Source of the DNA: a phage
Direction: 5' to 3' (one strand)
Sequence record: PZ386980.1
DNA: 64,000 bases
Shown here one piece after another: positions 779 through 46,319 of this stretch (position 1 is the first letter of the stretch; each line of letters starts with the position of its first letter). A program made the position numbers and the translations under genes. The notes beneath the pieces were generated by a model. It had not been told where the DNA came from and made no database searches. It saw only the letters and a list, made by a program, of their open reading frames with translations.

Positions 779-997
779 TTATGCTTTGCGACTAAATTGT
801 TCATAGTGCTGAATTACCTCTCTTAAACATTTGCATGTGAATGAAAACTTTTTAGCTACACCGCATTCAAATATATGTTCTCTTAAATCACATGTATCAG
901 TATATCCCATCTCAACAATAAAATGCCTTATTAGATTTTTATCTTTATCATTGAGAGAATTAAAATAATCAGATTTTGAATTAATTTCCCTGGCCAA
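779..997 (-). CDS. hypothetical early protein (72 aa)
   Basis: ORF track; Cys-containing small protein in motA-asiA interval. Confidence 0.45.
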   Translation of the reverse strand: MAREINSKSDYFNSLNDKDKNLIRHFIVEMGYTDTCDLREHIFECGVAKKFSFTCKCLREVIQHYEQFSRKA

Positions 998-1277
998 ATT
1001 GAATCACCTTCAGTTGACGTTTTAATTCTTTTATCATTTCTTCGTTCATCGCAATATAAAGATCGCGTAAAGCAGGTTTTAGCATTCCATTTACCGGAGA
1101 ACTAAATGGGCATACATAATCTTTTCCTACAAGCTTTTTGGTAAATTCCATATCACAAAATTTAAATGCTGGCTCATTCGCATAAATTCCCCAATTAGTT
1201 GACATCATTTTATTGGCATATTCCAGTGCCTGAATTTGATTCATAATTCCATCAATTTGAAACTTTTTAATATTCAT
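981..1277 (-). CDS. hypothetical early protein (98 aa)
   Basis: ORF track; tightly packed with neighbours. Confidence 0.45.
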   Translation of the reverse strand: MNIKKFQIDGIMNQIQALEYANKMMSTNWGIYANEPAFKFCDMEFTKKLVGKDYVCPFSSPVNGMLKPALRDLYIAMNEEMIKELKRQLKVIQFGQGN

Positions 1278-1738
1278 TAGTAAAGGTCCTCAGAGTAAAG
1301 TTCTTTTTCACTGCCACCACGTTCAATACGTACTTGTCCAGCGTAAGTTGCAATAATCATTGCTTCTTCACGTGTCCAATAATTACTGTATTGGTCAATA
1401 AACCCTTGGTCATCATCACAAACTTGTTGAGTAACTAATTGAGGTTTAACTACATCTAAAACTTCTGCCATATCTTTAGAATAATGACGAGCACCTGGAA
1501 CAACGAGAGTTCGTCCATCTTTTAATTTAAAACGGTTGGCTGCACAGACAATTCGTCGTTGATACTTTTGGTTTTCATCCCAATACGCAGTCTGCCAACA
1601 TATTTCAGGAACTTCATCTAAAACATTTTGTTCTGTATATTCACCGCCGTAAGAAGCTAATTTAGCAGCCAGACTTTCCGGAGTCTCACGCAACAAAGCT
1701 TTATCTAACAGAGCTAAACGTTCTTTAAAAGTTTTCAT
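1277..1738 (-). CDS. hypothetical early protein (153 aa)
   Basis: ORF track; stop/start abut neighbouring genes. Confidence 0.5.
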
Positions 1739-33855: not shown

Positions 33856-36552
33856 TCAGCCAAACAGGAAGTCTAACGAAGCTTTTTCTTCATAGTCCAT
33901 ACCAGCCGATTCACACATGCCTGCAAGCGGTTTAACAAACGATTTTTGGAACAAAGTTGAGTAGTCAATCCAAGACAATACGTCAGAACGAATTTCTTTT
34001 GGAAGTTCTGTGCCCGACGGCCAAGCAATGCACTTGTCACCAAATGGATTTCCTTCACGCAATGGAAGAACCATTACTTTATTTCCATCCAAAATTGGAG
34101 CTACACCCAGACCACTAACAGCTCGACGATAAGTTAGCACACCACGAATATGGAACGGACATTTAAATCCTGGCCAACCTTTATCATCATATTTCGCTAT
34201 ATCGTTCGCAGTTTTTACTTCAGCAATAACTTTATAGTCAAGTTGACGATATTCTTTCTCAAAGTTCTTATAATATTCTTGAACAGACTCTTCGCCTTCT
34301 TGAAGAATACGACGAATACTTTCTTCAAGAGCTTCTTGAACTGCTTTAGGCGTTGAACTTTGCTGAGTTTCCATACCCATGATTTTTAGATGCGGTTCAG
34401 CAAAACGCTTATCTTCCATATCATATACGTTCAGAGCATAACGCTTTTTCGCTTTCCAAAATCCACCAACGCCCTTTGAACCAAGTGGAGGGCAAGAAAT
34501 AGCTTCACGGTCCATATGCATCAGATGCTCGCGGTTATTCATATAATCACATAACTCACGATATGCAACATCAATCATAGGTTCCATCTTTTTCTTACCG
34601 AACTGATTCATGAATTCAACTAAATCGTTCTGCTCTTTGAATCGGTCAAGACCAACTTTTTCAATAACTTTATCTACACAAACATATACCGAATCAGTAT
34701 CACCTGCTGCAATGAAATCTTCGCCATTAGTTCCGCACACTTTATTCAGATACTCATTAATTTTACGAGCAATCCACTGAATACCAACTTGGCCGAAAAT
34801 TGTGATAGCAGTAGCATTTCGCAAATCATAGTAACGGAAATGAATATTACCAAGAGCACCGTAAAGGCTGTTAATAAGAATTTTACGGTTCAGCTGATTT
34901 GTATTAGCAAGTGTAGCCGCTTTTTCACATTCTTCAATCAAACTATTGAGAACAGATTCAGTATAATTCGATAGTTCATTTAAGAAATCATCACTGAACT
35001 TAACATATCGTTCAACTTCAGGTTTAGTTGAACAAGACCCTGCGCCTTTCATAATAATCTTTTTAATAGCTTCGGCATTCATTTCTTCAGCGAACATTTT
35101 CTTTTTCCAATCTTTACGCTGGAAAAATACTTTAGCGATTTCCTTTGGAATGATACCTTCTTGATGCTTATCGTACATCCATCCATTCGGAGAACAAGAA
35201 TATTCATCACTCGGTTTAGGAGCTGTTCCTGCGATATATTCATGAATTGGATGAACTTTAAACTGACCACGAATAGTCTCAGGACTAATGTTAACCTGAC
35301 GAATAATGCTCGGATACAGAGACGTCAAGTCAAAACTCATAATATATCGACGAGCAATTGGTTTAGGTTCAAATACAAATGCACCCGGAAAACTCTGTTT
35401 AACATGCGAACCTTGTTGAGGAATAACCTTGTGTTCACCTTTCAATGAGTTAAAAATAATAGCATCCCAGGTTTTAATAGGACTCATTACACCAGAAAAA
35501 GGCATTTTAGCGTAATAAGACATACTTAAAACTAGATCGATAAACCCGCGAATTTTATCAATTGCTTGAACTGATTCTACGTCAATGATGTTATAACTAA
35601 TGTATCGTTGATGATTAGTCTCACGAAGTTTATTAATAGGACCGTCGTATGGTAATTTACCTTTTTTGGTTTCATGCTGAGCAACTGATTCCAAAGAGAA
35701 TGACGGCAAATTAGTAAATGCGAATTTCTTATACAAATCTAAATAATCAAGAATAGATACGCCATCAATAGAATAAATTTCTTTGCTACCGTACATATTT
35801 TGGATAAGTTTAGATTTTACTCGACCGATTGGAGAGAAGCGTTTCATACTACGTTCACCGAGAACCATTTTAACGCGATTCATGATATACGGAACGTCAA
35901 ATCCCTCAATATTCCAACCAGTAAAAATAGCAGGTCGTTTCTGTTCCCAGAGATTGATATATTCCATGAGCATATCACGCTCATTATCGAATGGCATATA
36001 AATTACTCGGTCAAGAATTTCTTGAGGAACTTCATCACCACCTTCACAGTCAAGCTTAGCAGCTAACTTTGCATCCCATTTTGATACTGAACCATACATT
36101 GAATTCAAAAGGTCGAAAACATAAAAACGATCATCAATTGAATCGTAATGAGTGATAGCATCAATTTCATATTCAGCTTTCATTGGGTCAGGAAATTTAT
36201 CACCAGTAACCTCAATGTCACAGTTAGCTACACGAACAAATTTTCGGTCATAAACAATTTCTGAACCGTATGTATCACTGATATAAGCGAGTTTAAAATC
36301 GTTCATACCGAGAGCTTCGAGACCGATGTCTTCCATTCGTTTCATCCAATCTCGAGCATCTTTCATTGATGGAAATTTTTGAGGAGCGCAGTTTTTACCA
36401 TAGATGTCTTTGTATTTTGACTCTTCCTTACAATGCCTAAACATAGTCGGAAGATATTCTACTTCACGAGTACGTTCCTTTCCGTTTTCATCAATATAAC
36501 GTTCAACAATGTTATTTCCAACTGTTTCGATAGAGATATAAAATTCTTTCAT
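33856..36552 (-). CDS. 43: DNA polymerase (family B)
   Basis: 898 aa, MKEFYISIETVGNNIVERYIDENGKERTREVEYLPTMF...; same length as T4 gp43. Confidence 0.95.
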   Translation of the reverse strand: MKEFYISIETVGNNIVERYIDENGKERTREVEYLPTMFRHCKEESKYKDIYGKNCAPQKFPSMKDARDWMKRMEDIGLEALGMNDFKLAYISDTYGSEIVYDRKFVRVANCDIEVTGDKFPDPMKAEYEIDAITHYDSIDDRFYVFDLLNSMYGSVSKWDAKLAAKLDCEGGDEVPQEILDRVIYMPFDNERDMLMEYINLWEQKRPAIFTGWNIEGFDVPYIMNRVKMVLGERSMKRFSPIGRVKSKLIQNMYGSKEIYSIDGVSILDYLDLYKKFAFTNLPSFSLESVAQHETKKGKLPYDGPINKLRETNHQRYISYNIIDVESVQAIDKIRGFIDLVLSMSYYAKMPFSGVMSPIKTWDAIIFNSLKGEHKVIPQQGSHVKQSFPGAFVFEPKPIARRYIMSFDLTSLYPSIIRQVNISPETIRGQFKVHPIHEYIAGTAPKPSDEYSCSPNGWMYDKHQEGIIPKEIAKVFFQRKDWKKKMFAEEMNAEAIKKIIMKGAGSCSTKPEVERYVKFSDDFLNELSNYTESVLNSLIEECEKAATLANTNQLNRKILINSLYGALGNIHFRYYDLRNATAITIFGQVGIQWIARKINEYLNKVCGTNGEDFIAAGDTDSVYVCVDKVIEKVGLDRFKEQNDLVEFMNQFGKKKMEPMIDVAYRELCDYMNNREHLMHMDREAISCPPLGSKGVGGFWKAKKRYALNVYDMEDKRFAEPHLKIMGMETQQSSTPKAVQEALEESIRRILQEGEESVQEYYKNFEKEYRQLDYKVIAEVKTANDIAKYDDKGWPGFKCPFHIRGVLTYRRAVSGLGVAPILDGNKVMVLPLREGNPFGDKCIAWPSGTELPKEIRSDVLSWIDYSTLFQKSFVKPLAGMCESAGMDYEEKASLDFLFG

Positions 36553-40209: not shown

Positions 40210-40923
40210 ATGAATTATAAACTAATTTATGAAAAGTTAATCTCTAATGCTAAATCTCGAAAACTTGATTGCTATACTGAATCTCATCACATTATACCAC
40301 GCTGTTTAAATGGCAGCGATGATGCTTCAAACTTAGTAGATTTAACACCGGAAGAGCACTATGTAGCTCATCAACTTTTAGTAAAAATTTATCCTTCTGA
40401 ACCAAAATTAATCTATGCTGCTAACATGATGACAGTTTCCACGAAATACGCTAAACGTAACAATAAAACTTTCGGTTGGATTCGTCGTAAACTCTGGGAA
40501 ATAGAAAAGAATAAAGAATTCTCCCAGGAGACACGAAAGAAAATGTCTGATGCAGTAGCTAATAAAGCAAGACTAACTTGTCCACATTGCGGTAAGTCCG
40601 GATTAAGCGGGAATATGAATCGATGGCATTTTGATAACTGCCCGAATCACCCTAATCCTAAAGTTAGACCACCGATGTCTAAAGAACACAGAAATAATAT
40701 CTCAAACGGGCTTAAAGCAATCATTCTTGAAGAAACATCCTGCGAATTCTGCGGAATGATAGGCAAGAAATGCGTTATTGCAGCGCATAGAAATTTCTGC
40801 AAGAAAAATCCAAATGGACGCAAGAAAACTGAAAAGACTGGTACTTGCGTCCATTGTGGTAAAGTTACCACTTTCGGAAATTTATCAAGGTGGCATAATG
40901 ATAACTGTAAGCACAAACATTAA
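40210..40923 (+). CDS. free-standing HNH homing endonuclease (237 aa), plus strand
   Basis: HNH motif ESHHIIPRCLNGSDDASNLVDLTPEEHYVAH; two C-terminal repeats CPHCGK...NMNRWHFDNC / CVHCGK...NLSRWHNDNC. Confidence 0.75.
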   Translation: MNYKLIYEKLISNAKSRKLDCYTESHHIIPRCLNGSDDASNLVDLTPEEHYVAHQLLVKIYPSEPKLIYAANMMTVSTKYAKRNNKTFGWIRRKLWEIEKNKEFSQETRKKMSDAVANKARLTCPHCGKSGLSGNMNRWHFDNCPNHPNPKVRPPMSKEHRNNISNGLKAIILEETSCEFCGMIGKKCVIAAHRNFCKKNPNGRKKTEKTGTCVHCGKVTTFGNLSRWHNDNCKHKH

Positions 40924-42608
40924 TTAATAGTGGCAACACTAAATCTACCAACTTTTTCCATTTTAATATGCTGTCCATAATCCTGCGGATCATGGTCTTT
41001 ATGCGAAATTATGAAGAAGTTGGTATCCTTCAAACCATCTAAAATTTTAGCTACATTTTTAATGCCTTCAGCATCAAATGCACCGTCATACACTTCATCA
41101 AGAAATAAACAACTTATTTTAACACCTGAAACTTTTTCAGCAATATCACGCCAAGTAAATAAAAGAGCAATATCAATTCGCGCTTTTTCACCTTGACTGA
41201 ATGAAGCATAACTAAAATCTTCACGACCACGGGATTTAATTGTCTCATTAAATTCTTCATCTAATGTAAACACATAATCCGCTTCCATTATTTTAAGATA
41301 ATGGTTAATCTGCTTATTAAATAATGGAATGTACTTTTTAATAATAGCACCTTTAATACCAGAATCTTTGAGCATATCAGTCAAAATTCCTCGGTGGTAT
41401 TTTTCCATTACTAAATTAGTTTTTGTCTTAACAATTTTATCAAGTTCTTCTTGAAGCAGTGCTATTTCATCAGCATGGTCAATAAACTCAGAAGATGCTT
41501 TTTCTATAGCTGCTTTAACTTTTTTAGCTTTATCTACCGTCGTGATTAGAGATTGCTTTTTATTGCGAATATCATTTGCCAACGACTGCTGAGTTTTAAT
41601 ATTATCTCGGTATTCATCAACAAGAACTTTTAAATTATCACGGTGTGTTGAAAGCTGTTCAAACGAATGCGTACATTCAGAAACTTTATCTTTAATTTTA
41701 GAAACAACTTTATCACCGGAACTTAATTGTGACAAACAGGTTGGACATAATCCACCTTCGTGATACATATTAATGACTTTATTATACGAGTCAATTTTTG
41801 ATTTAATTAAAACTGCTTCTTGACCGATTTTATTAAACGCATCAGTCGGATCTTCATCCAAAACAATATTAACTAATCTTTCATTAGCTTCTTCTATTTC
41901 CGATTTTAGCGTTCTAGCTTCTTTTGCCAAATCATCATACATATTTTGCAGACGAGTAAGATTGTCACCCGTTAATTTTTTCTGGCGTTCAACGTTATCA
42001 TTATATATTTTAATTTGTTGGATAATACTATCTTTTTTAACATCAAGCACTTGGTTCTGCGAATTTAATTCACGTATTAGTGCTTTATTAAGCTTATCCA
42101 TTTCAGCTAATGTTCCTACCTCAAGCAGGTCTTCCACAAGCTTTCTTCGTGCAGGGGTCGACAAACCCATGAAAGGGGTATACCCTGCTGTACCAAGGAC
42201 AACAATCTGCTTGAAACTGGCATATGACATTCCGATAAGCTGTTCAAATTCTGCTTGGAAATCTTTACTGCTGGCAGATTCATTAAGACGTGTACCGTTA
42301 ACGGTGATTTCGAAAACGTTTGGTTTTTGTCCTCTTTTGATATAGTACTTTTTCTCATCATATTCCATCCACAGTTCAACTAAAAGTTCTTTCTTATTTG
42401 TGCTGTTTATTAATTGACCTTTCTTTACATCACGAAATGGCTTACCAAAAAGCCCAAATGTGATGGCTTCTAACATAGTAGACTTACCACCGCCATTTCG
42501 TCCAGTAATAAGAGTTTTTTGAACCTTATCTAATTGAATGTCAACTCCATTTTGACCAACTGACATTATATTTTTATATTTTACTCTATTAAGTTTAAAT
42601 GATTTCAT
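40920..42608 (-). CDS. 46: recombination nuclease ATPase subunit (Rad50/SbcC-like)
   Basis: 562 aa; Walker A GRNGGGKST, long coiled coil, CPTC hook, C-terminal ABC signature; matches T4 gp46. Confidence 0.9.
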   Translation of the reverse strand: MKSFKLNRVKYKNIMSVGQNGVDIQLDKVQKTLITGRNGGGKSTMLEAITFGLFGKPFRDVKKGQLINSTNKKELLVELWMEYDEKKYYIKRGQKPNVFEITVNGTRLNESASSKDFQAEFEQLIGMSYASFKQIVVLGTAGYTPFMGLSTPARRKLVEDLLEVGTLAEMDKLNKALIRELNSQNQVLDVKKDSIIQQIKIYNDNVERQKKLTGDNLTRLQNMYDDLAKEARTLKSEIEEANERLVNIVLDEDPTDAFNKIGQEAVLIKSKIDSYNKVINMYHEGGLCPTCLSQLSSGDKVVSKIKDKVSECTHSFEQLSTHRDNLKVLVDEYRDNIKTQQSLANDIRNKKQSLITTVDKAKKVKAAIEKASSEFIDHADEIALLQEELDKIVKTKTNLVMEKYHRGILTDMLKDSGIKGAIIKKYIPLFNKQINHYLKIMEADYVFTLDEEFNETIKSRGREDFSYASFSQGEKARIDIALLFTWRDIAEKVSGVKISCLFLDEVYDGAFDAEGIKNVAKILDGLKDTNFFIISHKDHDPQDYGQHIKMEKVGRFSVATIN

Positions 42609-42623
42609 TTTGTATCCAATTGT

Positions 42624-42944
42624 TCACAATGAAGAAAATTCTTTAACTAAAGCCTGTAATGAAGCCTCTATTGGATATCCATTCTTAACTAACATTTTCC
42701 TAAACATTACATGTTTAGGACGATTATATGATATCCACAATTCATACAATTTATCTTTATTATCCCAATGATAGCCTTTTCGTCGAGATGCTATATGAGC
42801 TTTTCTAATCTCCGGATTTTTCCAACTAGCAGCTACTGAATTTGATATAGCTATTTTATATTCAGGTTTTGATAAAGCAGCACGAACAGCCTTTTGGTGT
42901 TTAATTTTATTTTCTTCGTTATTAAACCATTCCCTTGAAGCCAT
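42624..42944 (-). CDS. NUMOD-like DNA-binding repeat module, out of frame with the upstream HNH ORF
   Basis: 106 aa with repeated K/R-rich motifs (KHQKAVRAALSKPEYK, RKAHIASRRKG); overlaps 42851-43477 by 94 nt in another frame. Confidence 0.4.
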   Translation of the reverse strand: MASREWFNNEENKIKHQKAVRAALSKPEYKIAISNSVAASWKNPEIRKAHIASRRKGYHWDNKDKLYELWISYNRPKHVMFRKMLVKNGYPIEASLQALVKEFSSL

Positions 42945-43477
42945 TGAAATTTTTGTTTTGTTTTAAAATTATTTAATCTTTCTTTATTATCTTTCCTATT
43001 TTTTGCTACTGAAAAATATTTTAATGCCCTTTCTCTAGCAGCATTTCTATTTTGCGGATTTGAATAATACTGTTGAAGCCTTTTTGATATTGTGTCACTT
43101 ACATCTTGTTTTATAAAACTATATTCAGCAGCTATTAAATCAACTTCGGCTAAAGATAAATTTTTATATGTTTTTCCTGACATCATTCTATTTAAAGCAT
43201 TTAGCATTTTTCCATTTTTACCTTTTGCTAATAAGAAGTGTGCTTTAAAATGATTAAAATGACTTAAATTAACTAAATTCCATGTAGATTTTAAATATTC
43301 AGGAAATATTGATTTAGGAAGCACGTGGTGTGCTTCCGTTTTACCTGGAGTTTTAACAGTTGAATTCACAGAAATAAAATTAATGTAAGACTTGGCGTCT
43401 TCTTCACTCAACGCTAATTTTTCAACTAATTCCTTTATTAAAAATTCATCATTAATGTCAAGTTTAAAATTCTTCAC
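42851..43477 (-). CDS. HNH homing endonuclease, catalytic part (208 aa)
   Basis: HNH motif EAHHVLPKSIF...NLVNLSHFNHFKAHFLL; track start is GTG. Confidence 0.6.
   Translation of the reverse strand: MKNFKLDINDEFLIKELVEKLALSEEDAKSYINFISVNSTVKTPGKTEAHHVLPKSIFPEYLKSTWNLVNLSHFNHFKAHFLLAKGKNGKMLNALNRMMSGKTYKNLSLAEVDLIAAEYSFIKQDVSDTISKRLQQYYSNPQNRNAARERALKYFSVAKNRKDNKERLNNFKTKQKFQWLQGNGLITKKIKLNTKRLFVLLYQNLNIK
43443..43477. repeat. 35-bp direct repeat, copy 1 (encodes the KNFKLDINDEF start of the HNH gene)
   Basis: aattcatcattaatgtcaagtttaaaattcttcac; 29/35 identical to 43646-43680. Confidence 0.6.
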
Positions 43478-43737
43478 AAAAGATTCCTTTTAATGTATCT
43501 TTTAGACCATTCTATCATATCATCATAATCTAAAAAGTATTCATCAAATTCAGCCATGCAAACAACGCCTTGTGCTGTTTTTGATGTAATATAAATTATT
43601 CCAACATATCTAGAATCTTCTTCGGTATAATCAATATTTGCTATAAATTCATCATTAATGTCAAATGTCGAAAACTTCACAGTATGCATCCTTAATACAA
43701 GATACAGCCATATCTCGTAATGATTTAGGTGTGTCAT
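43474..43737 (-). CDS. hypothetical protein (87 aa; likely shorter, from MHTVKF)
   Basis: contains KFSTFDINDEF, encoded by repeat copy 2. Confidence 0.4.
   Translation of the reverse strand: MTHLNHYEIWLYLVLRMHTVKFSTFDINDEFIANIDYTEEDSRYVGIIYITSKTAQGVVCMAEFDEYFLDYDDMIEWSKRYIKRNLL
43646..43680. repeat. 35-bp direct repeat, copy 2
   Basis: aattcatcattaatgtcaaatgtcgaaaacttcac. Confidence 0.6.
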
Positions 43738-43924
43738 TATCTAAAATGTTGAAGTTAAAAGATACAGCCCAGTCAGTGCAGACCGTAACCTTTTTAATAC
43801 AATTATCTTCAACCTCTAACGGTTCAAACCAATATTCAATAATTTCTTTATGCCCAATATCATCTTTTACTTCGCATTCAAAATGCTGACTCATCATAAC
43901 ATTTTTAAATTCATCAAAAGTCAT
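43661..43924 (-). CDS. hypothetical protein (87 aa)
   Basis: ORF track; ATGA overlap with gene 47. Confidence 0.45.
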   Translation of the reverse strand: MTFDEFKNVMMSQHFECEVKDDIGHKEIIEYWFEPLEVEDNCIKKVTVCTDWAVSFNFNILDNDTPKSLRDMAVSCIKDAYCEVFDI

Positions 43925-44940
43925 TGTGTTGCCTCTACATATAACTGATTTGCATATTGAATAAGTGCTTCGCGGTCAGAATCAGTGATGTCTGGAATTG
44001 CATTAATGTATTCTTCCATCAACGTCTGAAGAGATTGAACTTCAACTTCTTCGCTTTCATCTGACTCGACAGAGTTATCAATTTTTGACACAACTCGTAA
44101 TGAATGCACAACTTTTTCTAGTTCAGATTCGAACTTCGTCAGATTTTTGTCTACCTCAGTTACTATAACACGTACTGATAGATTTGTAAAATCTTTATAG
44201 TCAATTTTTCCTTTAAATGGATAATGAATTCTACGATGCCAGGTAGTATTGTTTGGAATAAATTCCATTCGTTCTGTTTCTGTATCAAACATCCAGAACC
44301 CGCGAGGGTCATTCTCGTCACCTGCAGTTAGTGTCCATGGTGTCCCAATATATCTGACGTTTGCAGCCTCAGAAATAGTATGGAAGTGACCAGACCACAC
44401 TTCTTTATAAGTCTTAAGGAAATCAGGTTCAAGACCGTGAGATTTCATTCCTTTATAAAAATAAAATCCATTCAGTTCCCAGTGACCAACACAAAAAGAA
44501 GCAGATGAAGTTTTTATGTGCTCGAGAATTTCACCAGTATTTTCTTCACACATCCAAGGAATTAAATCAATTAAACATCCGTCAAAATCTACTGTAGTAG
44601 GCTTATCATATACTTTAACATTAGGATATTTAGCCAAAAGCTCAGTAGAGGCATTTGGAGTTAAAGTATTTTTAAAGTGCATATCATGGTTTCCTACAAC
44701 AGTATGTAGGGTAATACCAGCATCATCAAGCATTTGAACTATTTCACGAGCGAACTCCATAGTTTTATGCGTGATTGCTTTTCGCACATCAAAAATATCG
44801 CCATATTGAATCCAGGTAGTAATTCCATTTTTCTTAGAATATTCTATTGCTTGTTTAATTCCATCCAACTGAATGGATTGAACCCACTCGTCATCGGCTT
44901 TAACGCCTAAATGCCAATCACCTAAATTTAAAATTTTCAT
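43921..44940 (-). CDS. 47: recombination nuclease (Mre11/SbcD-like)
   Basis: 339 aa, MKILNLGDWHLGVK...GNHDMHF phosphoesterase motifs; matches T4 gp47. Confidence 0.9.
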   Translation of the reverse strand: MKILNLGDWHLGVKADDEWVQSIQLDGIKQAIEYSKKNGITTWIQYGDIFDVRKAITHKTMEFAREIVQMLDDAGITLHTVVGNHDMHFKNTLTPNASTELLAKYPNVKVYDKPTTVDFDGCLIDLIPWMCEENTGEILEHIKTSSASFCVGHWELNGFYFYKGMKSHGLEPDFLKTYKEVWSGHFHTISEAANVRYIGTPWTLTAGDENDPRGFWMFDTETERMEFIPNNTTWHRRIHYPFKGKIDYKDFTNLSVRVIVTEVDKNLTKFESELEKVVHSLRVVSKIDNSVESDESEEVEVQSLQTLMEEYINAIPDITDSDREALIQYANQLYVEATQ

Positions 44941-45116: not shown

Positions 45117-46319
45117 TTATTTTGTAATAATGTCAAACTGTTCTTTAAAGCAGAAGCTTGAATCTTGATGCTGATACAAAAATTCATAAGCTTTTTCGCG
45201 TTCGCGGTCATAAAGAGTTCGGTCAGATGACAGTTCTTTAATACGTTCAAATGTTGATTCCATGTCATTTTCATCAAACCAAATGATACCGCTATCATGC
45301 GAGGTCAAAGGAGTATTATCAACACGGAATTTTAAATTTTCGCCAGTAGATTTCCAAAATACCGGAATTGTTCCACATGCACCAAGCTCGAGATGAGTAT
45401 ATTCTAAAGAACGTTGTAGATATTTTTTATCCAACTTACTCAACTGATAACCAAAACCGGATTTACTCATACGTTCAAGCATTTCGCTATTTACATAACG
45501 GTCAAGAATTTGCGTTGGCAAATTAGGAGCAATTTTAATTTGGTCTACTTGATGAAGACGATAATACTCGTATGGAATTCCTTTTTCTTTAATAGGAATG
45601 AACGCTGGAGAACGTTCCAGACCTTCCATAATAGTACTTAGTCCTGCAGGTTTAAGATGTTTTTCGTGAAAATCAAACATCTGATAAAAACCTTTCCATG
45701 TAGTCGTACGACCAATCCAACGGTTGATATTCATGTTAATTTCAGAAACATCTTTCCAGTAAGTTGACCGAACCTTCGCAATATCCATAGGAGGCTGAAA
45801 GTTATATACGGTCGGTGCTTCTTCAATATCATCAAACAGAGAAACAGTTTCTGGATACCACTCTTTCATCAGAACTTTATTAAAATCACCATTATCAGAA
45901 TGGCTAAAAATAACATCAGCTCGACGAACAGTTTCTTCTAATCCCAAATTTCGACGCAAAGAAAGAGAAGAATGGTCATGCTGATAAACTACAACACGAA
46001 CAGAAGGTTTAATATTATCAATAATTTTTTTATAGTTATTAATAGTGTCTTCTTCAACCGAAGTAGCAGGAACTGAATTGATAATTAGAATATCACAATC
46101 ATTTACCAGCTTAAGTGTTTTATCGTATTCTTTTGCCAATAAAACCGGAATTGAAAATGATTTATAATCATGCGCGCAATTACGAGTAAATGATTTATCT
46201 TTAGCATAAACCAAAGTCACTTCATGACCATTTTTAATAAACCAATCACGTTGCTCGAGTGAGAATTTTGTTACACCACAACCTTCAAGACCTCGAGCCA
46301 TAAAAATACATACTTTCAT
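45117..46319 (-). CDS. agt: alpha-glucosyltransferase
   Basis: 400 aa, MKVCIFMARGLEGCGVTKFSLEQRDWFIKNGHEVTLVYAKDKSF...; matches T4 alpha-gt. Confidence 0.9.
   Translation of the reverse strand: MKVCIFMARGLEGCGVTKFSLEQRDWFIKNGHEVTLVYAKDKSFTRNCAHDYKSFSIPVLLAKEYDKTLKLVNDCDILIINSVPATSVEEDTINNYKKIIDNIKPSVRVVVYQHDHSSLSLRRNLGLEETVRRADVIFSHSDNGDFNKVLMKEWYPETVSLFDDIEEAPTVYNFQPPMDIAKVRSTYWKDVSEINMNINRWIGRTTTWKGFYQMFDFHEKHLKPAGLSTIMEGLERSPAFIPIKEKGIPYEYYRLHQVDQIKIAPNLPTQILDRYVNSEMLERMSKSGFGYQLSKLDKKYLQRSLEYTHLELGACGTIPVFWKSTGENLKFRVDNTPLTSHDSGIIWFDENDMESTFERIKELSSDRTLYDREREKAYEFLYQHQDSSFCFKEQFDIITK

Follow-up and report, generated by a model that had tools for sequence, protein, structure and literature searches.

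The window, a 64,000-nt stretch of phage DNA (sequence record PZ386980.1), is 100% identical to phages RB51 and RB68. Between gene 46.1 and gene 46, and on the same strand as both, it carries two open reading frames (ORFs) at 42851-43477 (208 aa, GTG start) and 42624-42944 (106 aa) that lie in different frames and share 94 nt, as the original prediction had described. We refer to the two jointly as the homing endonuclease gene (HEG). The features of the interval are collected in Table 1.

Table 1. Features at the gene 46.1-gene 46 junction, in window coordinates
Feature	Position	Strand	Remarks
Gene 46.1, DUF5487, 68 aa	43474..43680	-	GTG start at 43680; directly upstream of gene 46
Source copy of 20-nt repeat	43645..43664	-	in gene 46.1; also in HEG-less T4
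Predicted HEG pseudogene, Mob-like HNH	42624..43477	-	intact alleles have 855 nt (284 aa), this copy 854 nt
HEG 5' fragment ORF, 208 aa	42851..43477	-	predicted HNH core, bba at residues 47-84, first helical repeats
GTGAAGAATTTTAAACTT, original gene-46 start and first 6 codons (MKNFKL)	43460..43477	-	now serves as HEG start
20-nt exact copy of 46.1 codons 6/7-12 (TTGACATTAATGATGAATTT, DINDEF)	43442..43461	-	within HEG N-terminus
HEG frameshift site	42950..42954	-	A5 run; A6 in all intact relatives; 1-nt deletion
HEG 3' fragment, shifted frame	42624..42949	-	NUMOD3-like helical repeats and conserved C-terminal domain
Segment absent from T4	42591..43459	-	length 869 nt, or 870 nt where the HEG is intact
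15-nt spacer ACAATTGGATACAAA	42609..42623	-	between HEG stop and new gene-46 ATG
New gene-46 start with 6 recoded codons (MKSFKL), ATGAAATCATTTAAACTT	42591..42608	-	
Gene 46, Rad50/SbcC-like recombination nuclease subunit	40920..42608	-	5' end invaded by HEG

The two ORFs had been proposed to be one endonuclease gene split by a frameshift, through decay or slippage, and a comparison with relatives had been suggested as a check. Aligned against Aplg8 and PP01, the whole 900-nt interval contains a single 1-nt gap, and the ORF is intact in the relatives. Their AACAAAAAATTTC is AACAAAAATTTC in the window, and the addition of one A produces an 855-nt ORF whose product is identical to the 284-aa protein of Aplg8. 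Because PHROG 655 ('homing endonuclease') matches the repaired protein from residue 1 to 282 (E = 7.8e-45) and the ORF of relatives is intact, we read the two ORFs as one gene that was broken up when an A6 run lost 1 nt. The deletion truncates the protein after codon 177, which is followed by 31 out-of-frame residues, and parts the HNH core from two NUMOD3-like repeats and from the conserved C-terminal domain, which in the intact protein spans residues 236-284. The copy in the window is predicted to have lost its C-terminal DNA-binding part. The 5' fragment is identical to a 208-aa RefSeq 'homing endonuclease' of RB68, and the mechanical ORF of the 3' fragment takes the ATG at 42944 as its first codon. 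Among the matches listed, the A5 allele had exact matches in RB51 and RB68 only (4 records), and 55 other related phage records have one extra base at this site. RB51 and RB68 are near-identical phages and represent one lineage, not two events. The HEG of T2 carries an independent 2-nt deletion at nt 608-609, found in 7/7 T2 records and in SV76, at a position that is intact in 63 other records; the allele is intact in T6 and most wild isolates.

An error made in the homopolymer during sequencing or assembly, under which RB51 would encode the intact 284-aa enzyme, is very unlikely to account for the frameshift. Such a reading fits a single-base difference in an A run, an early-generation genome such as that of RB51, and the A6 found in every other carrier among the matches listed. 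However, a run of 5/6 nt is short for an Illumina indel error, and the identical A5 is present in RB68. The RB68 genome is a de novo assembly of MiSeq data at 3,187x (PMC4293622), independent of the RB51 sequence, which came from Tulane (PMC2993671). Because of this deep de novo Illumina assembly of RB68, we regard the A5 as a mutation rather than an artefact. There is also a slim chance that the A5 allele is attenuated, with a rare -1 slip of tRNA-Lys on CAA-AAA-T or the addition of an A by RNA polymerase yielding low levels of the exact wild-type 284-aa enzyme; if so, weak homing would be retained while endonuclease toxicity is avoided.

It is also very unlikely that the A5 is a site of programmed or leaky -1 recoding, where slippage of the ribosome or during transcription would make small amounts of full-length enzyme beside a truncated HNH protein. 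A tRNA-Lys -1 slip on C-AAA-AA-T would restore the wild-type ...KQKISMA... exactly, and expression of T4 endonucleases is commonly held low (PMC2988022). Against this, the zero frame reads CAA AAA TTT, which offers a P-site A-AAA slip only and no X XXY YYZ heptamer, and the downstream 108 nt have a minimum free energy of -9.8 kcal/mol compared to a shuffle mean of -11.9 (z = +0.81). Nor is the two-frame layout conserved, the other carriers among the matches listed having a single ORF. An A5 run is, moreover, too short for efficient transcriptional slippage. The motif, the RNA structure and the lack of conservation all led us to reject programmed frameshifting. Of the two routes originally offered, decay is favored over slippage, because the deletion is private to RB51/RB68 and neither a slippery heptamer nor a downstream structure accompanies it.

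The assignment to the HNH homing endonucleases draws on family-level evidence and is a prediction. Pfam, NCBIfam and word-indexed protein searches were insensitive for this protein, and an exhaustive HMMER search was required, which recovered 967 homologues in a representative library. The HNH models of Pfam and NCBIfam did not match the HEG protein. By tblastn, it aligned to T4 MobD at 30% identity over residues 47-281 (83% of the protein; E = 2e-11 to 3e-11) and also matched MobE-annotated genes. The motif originally noted in ORF 42851-43477, EAHHVLPKSIF...NLVNLSHFNHFKAH, is present, and across 83-90 homologues H50, H51, P54, N67, H76 and H80 are invariant or nearly so, giving the His-His...Asn...His...His pattern of an HNH catalytic/metal motif; Y31 is also invariant. 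AlphaFold2 models (pLDDT 95.1 and 91.8) place strands at residues 47-51 and 68-72, followed by a helix at 73-84, so that a two-strand hairpin and a motif-bearing helix are predicted, with a helical array after this bba part. In fold searches, no solved HNH nuclease was matched significantly; the best hits, to teneurin and Cas9, were non-significant, and the N-terminal 110-residue model gave no others. A PDB sequence search matched no chain.

The claim that NUMOD-like repeats continue into the second ORF found support through homologues and not through a direct Pfam match. Pfam PF07460 (NUMOD3) did not match the intact or the split protein, even at E = 10. Among 83 homologues, 28 match Pfam NUMOD3 and 5 match I-HmuI_NUMOD-like, and Pfam HNH is matched as well. 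The NUMOD3 region of these homologues aligns to approximately residues 135-235 of the HEG, and a full-length homologue with HNH and three NUMOD3 stretches aligns to residues 37-281, across the frameshift. We call the repeats 'NUMOD3-like', an assignment made by homology only.

Comparison with HEG-less T4 locates the insertion. RB51 matches T4 up to GTGAAGAATTTTAAACTT and then again from AATAGAGTA, the T4 gp46 start being VKNFKLNRVKYKNIMSVGQNG. The HEG start overlaps the stop of gene 46.1 (GTGA), and ahead of this start lies the AGGA Shine-Dalgarno of T4 gene 46. Downstream, 9 nt of the replacement start (TTTAAACTT, within 42591-42608) are an exact direct repeat of 43460-43468, which leaves the ends of the T4-absent segment ambiguous by this length. 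In Mosigvirus JS09 and Gelderlandvirus UoN_LG358_1, the junction ahead of gene 46 is similar to the 15-nt spacer. In this arrangement, the HEG sits after codon 6 of gene 46 and is served by the original Shine-Dalgarno, GTG and first 6 codons of that gene, while the 3' end of the insert supplies the spacer, a new ATG and recoded first 6 codons, leaving gene 46 intact. The original prediction of an insertion or recombination footprint was right in kind, and its anatomy needs revision: the insert truly joins gene 46 behind codon 6, the HEG carries 6 codons grafted from 46.1, and gene 46 now begins with a replacement start. That gene 46 has its first 6 codons duplicated as well had gone unnoticed. 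Taken on its own, the sequence is compatible with either insertion into a T4-type site or precise loss, with recombination between the 9-nt repeats.

The 35-bp repeat from which the footprint had been proposed holds on exact alignment (43443-43477 vs 43646-43680, 29/35 identical). Its 20-nt exact core exceeds the longest exact direct repeat in each of 300 first-order Markov simulations of 42400-44100 (maximum 16 nt, mostly 11-12). The second copy had been placed inside an 87-aa ORF; it is actually the start of gene 46.1, since Pfam DUF5487 matches that ORF from residue 20 onward and the GTG start agrees with the annotation of relatives. The motif F-x-[IL]-[GN]-D-[GE]-[WF] is kept in 46.1 of five genera and was not found in HEG homologues. 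Because of this distribution, we interpret the DINDEF motif as native to 46.1 and HEG codons 7-12 as copied from 46.1 codons 7-12, rather than the reverse.

It is extremely unlikely that gene 46.1 is instead what remains, in degenerate form, of the N-terminal part of an earlier HEG copy, with the repeat reflecting paralogy between tandem HEG copies. BLASTP does align 46.1 with the HEG over residues 1-39 (E = 3e-4), and MAFFT sets SKT-AQGVV...FDEYF opposite GKTEAHHVL...FPEYL. However, 46.1 is a conserved family of 734 phage records in at least five genera, lying directly upstream of gene 46 in several Tevenvirinae genera, and the motif common to both proteins is native to it. Once the first 12 residues were removed, an HMM of the HEG N-domain scored the real 46.1 no better than shuffled sequences, and the hhalign probability was 0.2%. 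On these grounds, the relic origin of 46.1 was rejected.

That the repeats are target-site duplications of a transposition-like insertion, or chance matches in AT-rich DNA, has hardly any probability, for although a 9-nt exact direct repeat flanks the insert in an AT-rich region, the right-hand repeat is part of a longer, imperfect recoded copy of 18 nt that has an ATG of its own, the spacer resembles donor-type junctions of other genera, the 20-nt repeat lies above all simulations, and HNH homing endonucleases spread via recombinational repair, not transposition (PMC2988022). The recoded copy and donor-like spacer fit imported flanking DNA rather than a staggered-cut duplication.

The HEG is patchily distributed, being carried by about 71-72 of 519 matching Tequatrovirus records and cleanly absent from T4, and so is an optional ORF present in some close relatives and not in others. 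Gelderlandvirus and Mosigvirus have HEG homologues at 43-44% identity directly upstream of gene 46. In Mosigvirus phiEC1, the first 22 nt (7 codons) of the HEG are common with Mosigvirus 46.1, the rest of which has been replaced. The C-terminal tails of the phiEC1 and UoN HEGs show a likeness to the 46.1 C-terminus in the ribosome-binding region of gene 46 that is too weak to claim. When a synthetic chimeric query, 46.2-46.1(1-12)::HEG, was searched, all of the best 30 phage records gave two-piece matches in the normal arrangement, and the intermediate 46.1(1-12)::HEG without 46.1 was not found among them. Exact-pattern scans of IMG/VR and JGI metagenomes lacked even the real junction used as a positive control; these collections do not contain the locus and were uninformative.

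Considering all of this evidence, we are confident in the explanation as a whole, namely that a predicted free-standing, Mob-type HNH homing endonuclease gene was inserted in the 5' end of gene 46 and survives at the 46.1/46 junction as a decayed pseudogene. The intact enzyme of T6 and most wild isolates would cut HEG-less alleles near the 46.1/46 junction in mixed infection, and the HEG would then be copied in through recombinational repair, i.e. intronless homing. The Tequatrovirus HEG may have come from a donor that had the start of 46.1 joined to its HEG, as present-day phiEC1 does, with the gene-46 start of the donor imported together with it and the left join made by microhomology between the similar starts of 46.1 and 46. 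The original double-strand break may have been at gene 46 codon 6/7, as marked by the chimeric HEG N-terminus and by the duplication of the gene-46 start; if true, this predicts the cleavage site of the HEG lineage. Inactivation in RB51/RB68, and separately in T2, would correspond to the degeneration phase of the homing-endonuclease life cycle. A genome with the junction ...TTTTCGACATTTGACATTAATGATGAATTTTTAATAAAGG..., in which the start of 46.1 is fused to the HEG, would fix the order of events, as would an HEG-less gene 46 starting ATGAAATCA directly after 46.1.

Known systems offer several points of comparison. First, the HEG shares the HH...N...H...H core with T4 MobD and MobE and, like T4 mob genes, is a promoter-less cassette in the orientation of its neighbors, with a start overlapping the upstream stop (GTGA) and a patchy occurrence among close relatives (PMC2988022). 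It differs from MobD and MobE in its locus, 46.1/46, in an ORF that begins with codons of two resident genes, in its position within the 5' coding part of an essential gene that has received a replacement start, and in the frameshift of the present copy. MobE is the sole Mob with demonstrated activity, and that of T4 MobD is given as 'not determined' (PMC2988022). Second, an architecture like that of I-HmuI, the intron-encoded HNH nicking endonuclease of SPO1, is suggested by the homologues, with an N-terminal HNH domain, NUMOD-type helical repeats and a C-terminal DNA-binding domain; unlike I-HmuI, the HEG is free-standing, and it has no PDB sequence match or significant fold match. Third, the HEG resembles the defunct, truncated I-TevIII of the T4 nrdB intron in being inactive in some laboratory T-even phages and intact in relatives, degeneration after fixation being the expected fate of an HEG in the Goddard-Burt life cycle (PMC2988022, PMC2790892). 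Its lesions are 1-base (RB51/RB68) or 2-base (T2) frameshifts rather than a large deletion, and no trans-acting rescuer is known. Lastly, SegF and SegG, a case of intronless homing (T4 vs T2 or RB3), are likewise free-standing and adjoin essential genes (56 and 32), and the HEG is also predicted to cut the HEG-less allele and co-convert flanking DNA. SegF and SegG are, however, GIY-YIG enzymes with demonstrated cleavage, whereas the HEG is a predicted HNH enzyme, and its flanks, 98-100% identical to T4, show no diverged co-conversion tract.

The HEG belongs to a known kind of element, has decayed, and shows a tidy footprint of recombination; it leaves the understanding of homing endonucleases unchanged, and its usefulness is modest. 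Natural null alleles (RB51/RB68, T2) beside intact ones (T6, many wild isolates) allow a clean genetic test of homing, with the 46/47 recombination-nuclease locus as the test locus of a Mob-type enzyme. The junctions offer a legible record of how a free-standing HEG could enter the 5' end of an essential gene without killing gene 46, and the presence of one HEG lineage at one locus in three Tevenvirinae genera suggests long-term specialization on the gene 46 start region. A search of the accessible literature found no description of the HEG, its frameshift or DUF5487, and no biochemical or genetic results on its cleavage or homing; the gene is merely counted in an HEG inventory table (PMC2993671). 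RB68 records annotate it as two unrelated ORFs, and the GenBank and RefSeq records of RB51 leave without annotation an 870-nt stretch for which an explanation is now given.

Two overlapping reading frames of a putative HNH endonuclease had been predicted beside gene 46, and both were present as described: minus-strand ORFs at 42851-43477 (208 aa) and 42624-42944 (106 aa), in different frames with a 94-nt overlap. They lie between genes 46.1 and 46 in an interval where every gene is on the minus strand. The 1.5-kb interval around this homing endonuclease gene (HEG) was 100% identical in phages RB51 (FJ839693 / NC_012635) and RB68 (KM607004 / NC_027979) and 95-99% identical in ~500 other Tequatrovirus records. 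In the relatives Aplg8 and PP01, a single 855-nt coding sequence annotated 'homing endonuclease' occupies the position of the split ORFs. Alignment of the window to these relatives contained one gap in 900 nt, at which AACAAAAAATTTC in the relatives becomes AACAAAAATTTC in the window and an A6 run is shortened to A5 (42950-42954). With one A added, the window sequence reads through as an ORF of 284 aa whose product is the same as that of Aplg8, and PHROG 655 ('homing endonuclease') matched residues 1-282 of the repaired protein (E = 7.8e-45). The split ORFs therefore make up a single gene, and the proposal of a single endonuclease gene split by a frameshift held. The pseudogene is unannotated in both RB51 records (positions 34375-35228), and RefSeq annotates RB68 with a 208-aa 'homing endonuclease' and an unrelated 38-aa hypothetical protein.

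Coordinates of genes at the 46.1/46 locus and of HEG copies in other phages
Feature	Sequence	Coordinates	Strand	Remark
Gene 47	Window	43921-44940	-	
46.2	Window	43661-43924	-	
46.1	Window	43474-43680	-	DUF5487
HEG	Window	42624-43477	-	Split by frameshift
Gene 46	Window	40920-42608	-	
HEG homologue	L006 (Mosigvirus phiEC1)	1447-2304		Gene order 47-46.2-HEG-46
HEG homologue	L007 (Gelderlandvirus UoN_LG358_1)	1489-2331		Gene order 47-HEG-46
HEG	L008 (phage T2, MH751506)	801-1653		2-nt deletion

A 91-nt query centred on the frameshift site matched exactly only in four RB51/RB68 records, and 55 other records among the matches listed have one extra base at the site. The A5 run might be a homopolymer artefact, but RB68, sequenced independently of RB51 (MiSeq, 3,187x, Velvet de novo assembly; PMC4293622), carries the identical allele, which makes an artefact unlikely. 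Programmed recoding was rejected: an X XXY YYZ heptamer is missing from the site (zero frame CAA AAA TTT), folding of the next 108 nt does not exceed that of shuffles (z = +0.81), and the split two-ORF arrangement is not conserved among relatives. An improbable reading is that a rare P-site slip occurs at the A5 run, which would regenerate the wild-type sequence.

The frameshift, at codon 177, costs the product ~108 residues, among them two of its NUMOD3-like repeats and, at the C-terminus, the domain that is best conserved (GYHWDN...LWISYNRPKHVMFRKMLVKNGYP); by analogy with I-HmuI and I-TevI, these parts should carry DNA recognition. In phage T2 the HEG has independently lost 2 nt (TCAAAACC to TCAACC, HEG nt 608-609), a deletion common to all 7 T2 records and SV76; these positions are intact in 63 other records, and the HEG of T6 is intact. 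Small frameshifts inactivate the HEG in RB51/RB68 and T2, the stage of degeneration expected of such elements. A 2010 inventory of T4-related genomes, in which the 46.1/46 HEG is counted, lists one 'other HNH' in each of T2, T6 and RB51 (PMC2993671); according to the same source T2 has a single HEG, which may be the defective 46.1/46 copy. RefSeq labels the relatives' copies 'homing endonuclease', and our literature search found no paper describing the 46.1/46 HEG, its frameshifts or its junctions. Only two points are new: that the HEG start is chimeric and that gene 46 has received a replacement start. Separately, the metagenome-derived homologue P0044 (107 aa) is a third truncated variant, identical over 78 residues before diverging inside the HNH motif, perhaps because of a further frameshift or through misassembly.

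Sequence searches of Pfam, NCBIfam and PDB did not recognize the HEG protein. With tblastn it matched T4 MobD (30% identity, residues 47-281, E about 2e-11) as well as MobE-annotated genes, and an exhaustive HMMER search returned 967 homologues. Alignments of the homologues contained invariant Y31, H50, H51, P54, N67, H76 and H80, which together are the HNH signature. Pfam matches among 83 homologues were to NUMOD3 (28/83), HNH (5/83) and the I-HmuI NUMOD-like family (5/83), and P0058, a homologue with HNH and three NUMOD3 stretches, aligned to residues 37-281 (E = 1e-20). A confident AlphaFold2 model (pLDDT 95) placed strands at 47-51 and 68-72 and a helix at 73-84, followed by an extended array of helices and, at the C-terminus, a compact domain; fold searches with the HEG models gave no significant HNH match. 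We also observed a perfect 8-bp inverted repeat at 43317-43337 (GGAAGCAC-ACCAC-GTGCTTCC), scored as terminator-like on the antisense strand, that exactly covers the codons of the catalytic E-A-H-H-V-L-P motif.

Phage T4 lacks the HEG, and its 46.1 stop overlaps the gene 46 start (junction ...AAAAGGAATCTTTTGTGAAGAATTTTAAACTT|AATAGAGTA...; gp46 N-terminus VKNFKLNRVKYKNIMSVGQNG). RB51 follows T4 through GTGAAGAATTTTAAACTT, whose GTG is the HEG start in RB51, and T4 identity returns at AATAGAGTA. Between this point and the stop of the HEG, RB51 has a spacer of 15 nt and then ATGAAATCATTTAAACTT (MKSFKL), where gene 46 now starts; the insert is therefore located within the gene 46 coding sequence, at its 5' end. 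The HEG now uses the Shine-Dalgarno sequence and start codon that belonged to gene 46, along with its first six codons (MKNFKL). The insert measures 869 nt in the window and 870 nt in intact alleles, its flanks match T4 at 98-100% identity all the way to the junctions, and it is bordered by an imperfect 18-nt / exact 9-nt direct repeat that the original prediction did not include.

The 35-bp repeat that had been predicted (43443-43477 and 43646-43680) is real, with 29/35 identical positions and a 20-nt exact core (43442-43461 and 43645-43664). It is not due to chance: 300 Markov simulations of the region gave longest exact repeats that usually measured 11-12 nt and never exceeded 16 nt. Codons 7-12 of the HEG (DINDEF), together with the TT before them, repeat 46.1 codons 7-12 exactly. 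The sequence DINDEF originates in 46.1, since it belongs to a conserved N-terminal motif of that family (F-x-[IL]-[GN]-D-[GE]-[WF]), and the motif is absent from HEG homologues, whether they sit at this locus or elsewhere. This makes the HEG N-terminus a chimera of gene 46 codons 1-6 and 46.1 codons 7-12, followed by the HEG proper. Beyond those 12 residues 46.1 and the HEG have no detectable homology (hmmsearch scores no better than shuffles; hhalign probability 0.2%), and on this ground, with the native DINDEF and the breadth of the 46.1 family, the idea that 46.1 is a decayed HEG copy was rejected.

By tblastn, 734 phage records from at least five genera have a 46.1 homologue, in every case directly upstream of gene 46 and in most cases overlapping its start; a word-indexed protein search had given a narrower spread (35 clusters). 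Carriers include Tequatro-, Mosig-, Kanagawa- and Gaprivervirus and Citrobacter phage Ursula (loci L010-L014), and the position of 46.1 hints at a function tied to gp46/gp47. In a Logan contig (ERR10686928; L009, 2501-2740), a mosaic 46.1, Mosigvirus-type in its N-terminal two thirds (MTKTDYEIHRHEF...) and Tequatrovirus-type in its C-terminal third, precedes an intact RB51-type HEG, which shows recent inter-genus recombination right at this locus.

Homologous HEGs (43-44% identity) occupy the same locus in two other genera, Gelderlandvirus and Mosigvirus. The HEG ATG overlaps the gene 47 stop in UoN_LG358_1, and here as well as in phiEC1 the final codons of the HEG share ~14 nt with the start of gene 46. 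The first 22 nt of the phiEC1 HEG (7 codons, MTKTDYE) are common with Mosigvirus 46.1, the rest of which is replaced, so that phiEC1 is an extant phage with a 46.1::HEG fusion. The spacer and new gene 46 start of RB51 (GGATACAAAATGAAATCATTTAAA) resemble the pre-gene-46 junctions of JS09 (GAATACATATGAAATCATTTAAA) and UoN_LG358_1, suggesting that they were imported together with the HEG.

Judging by homology and context, the HEG is a free-standing homing endonuclease gene: a promoter-less cassette oriented as its neighbours, with a start overlapping the upstream stop and a patchy presence (~71/519 relatives). In the most likely history, whose details we regard as about evenly balanced between right and wrong, an HEG of this lineage, joined to a Tequatrovirus-type 46.1 behind codon 12 and accompanied by a donor-type gene 46 start, would have met a T4-type genome. 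The right-hand exchange would have been homologous, within gene 46, and the left-hand join would have used microhomology between the starts of 46.1 (GTGAAGTTTTCGACATTT) and 46 (GTGAAGAATTTTAAACTT), preserving the conserved 46.1 gene. The proposed 46.1::HEG intermediate was not found among the best 30 phage records; scans of IMG/VR and JGI metagenomes yielded neither it nor the actual junction that served as positive control, so these collections lack the locus. If the two TTTAAACTT copies recombined, the T4 sequence would be restored exactly, so HEG gain and precise loss are indistinguishable. In mixed infections the enzyme would be expected to cleave 46.1/46 alleles that lack the HEG, and recombinational repair would then copy the HEG into them, a course shown for MobE, SegF and SegG (PMC2988022).

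A second Mob-like HNH ORF (40210-40923, plus strand, 237 aa), probably the 'first' HNH of the original prediction, runs convergently to gene 46, with 4 nt of overlap at the gene 46 stop, and is absent from T4; RB51 gene 46 therefore has HEGs on both sides. Its motif, ESHHIIPR...NLVDLTPEEHYVAH, is followed by three CxxC...WHxDNC zinc-finger-like modules, and the HEG N-domain HMM matched it with E = 3.5e-19. The 3' end of gene 46 (40920-41210) is 63-82% identical to T4 and the rest of the gene 93-100%; this tract looks like an imported or co-converted flank of the downstream HEG, and the flanks of the 46.1/46 HEG have no such low-identity tract. Local patches in gene 47 (44600-44900) and a-gt (45400-45700) are 67-90% identical to T4, against 96-100% elsewhere, and are typical T-even mosaicism.
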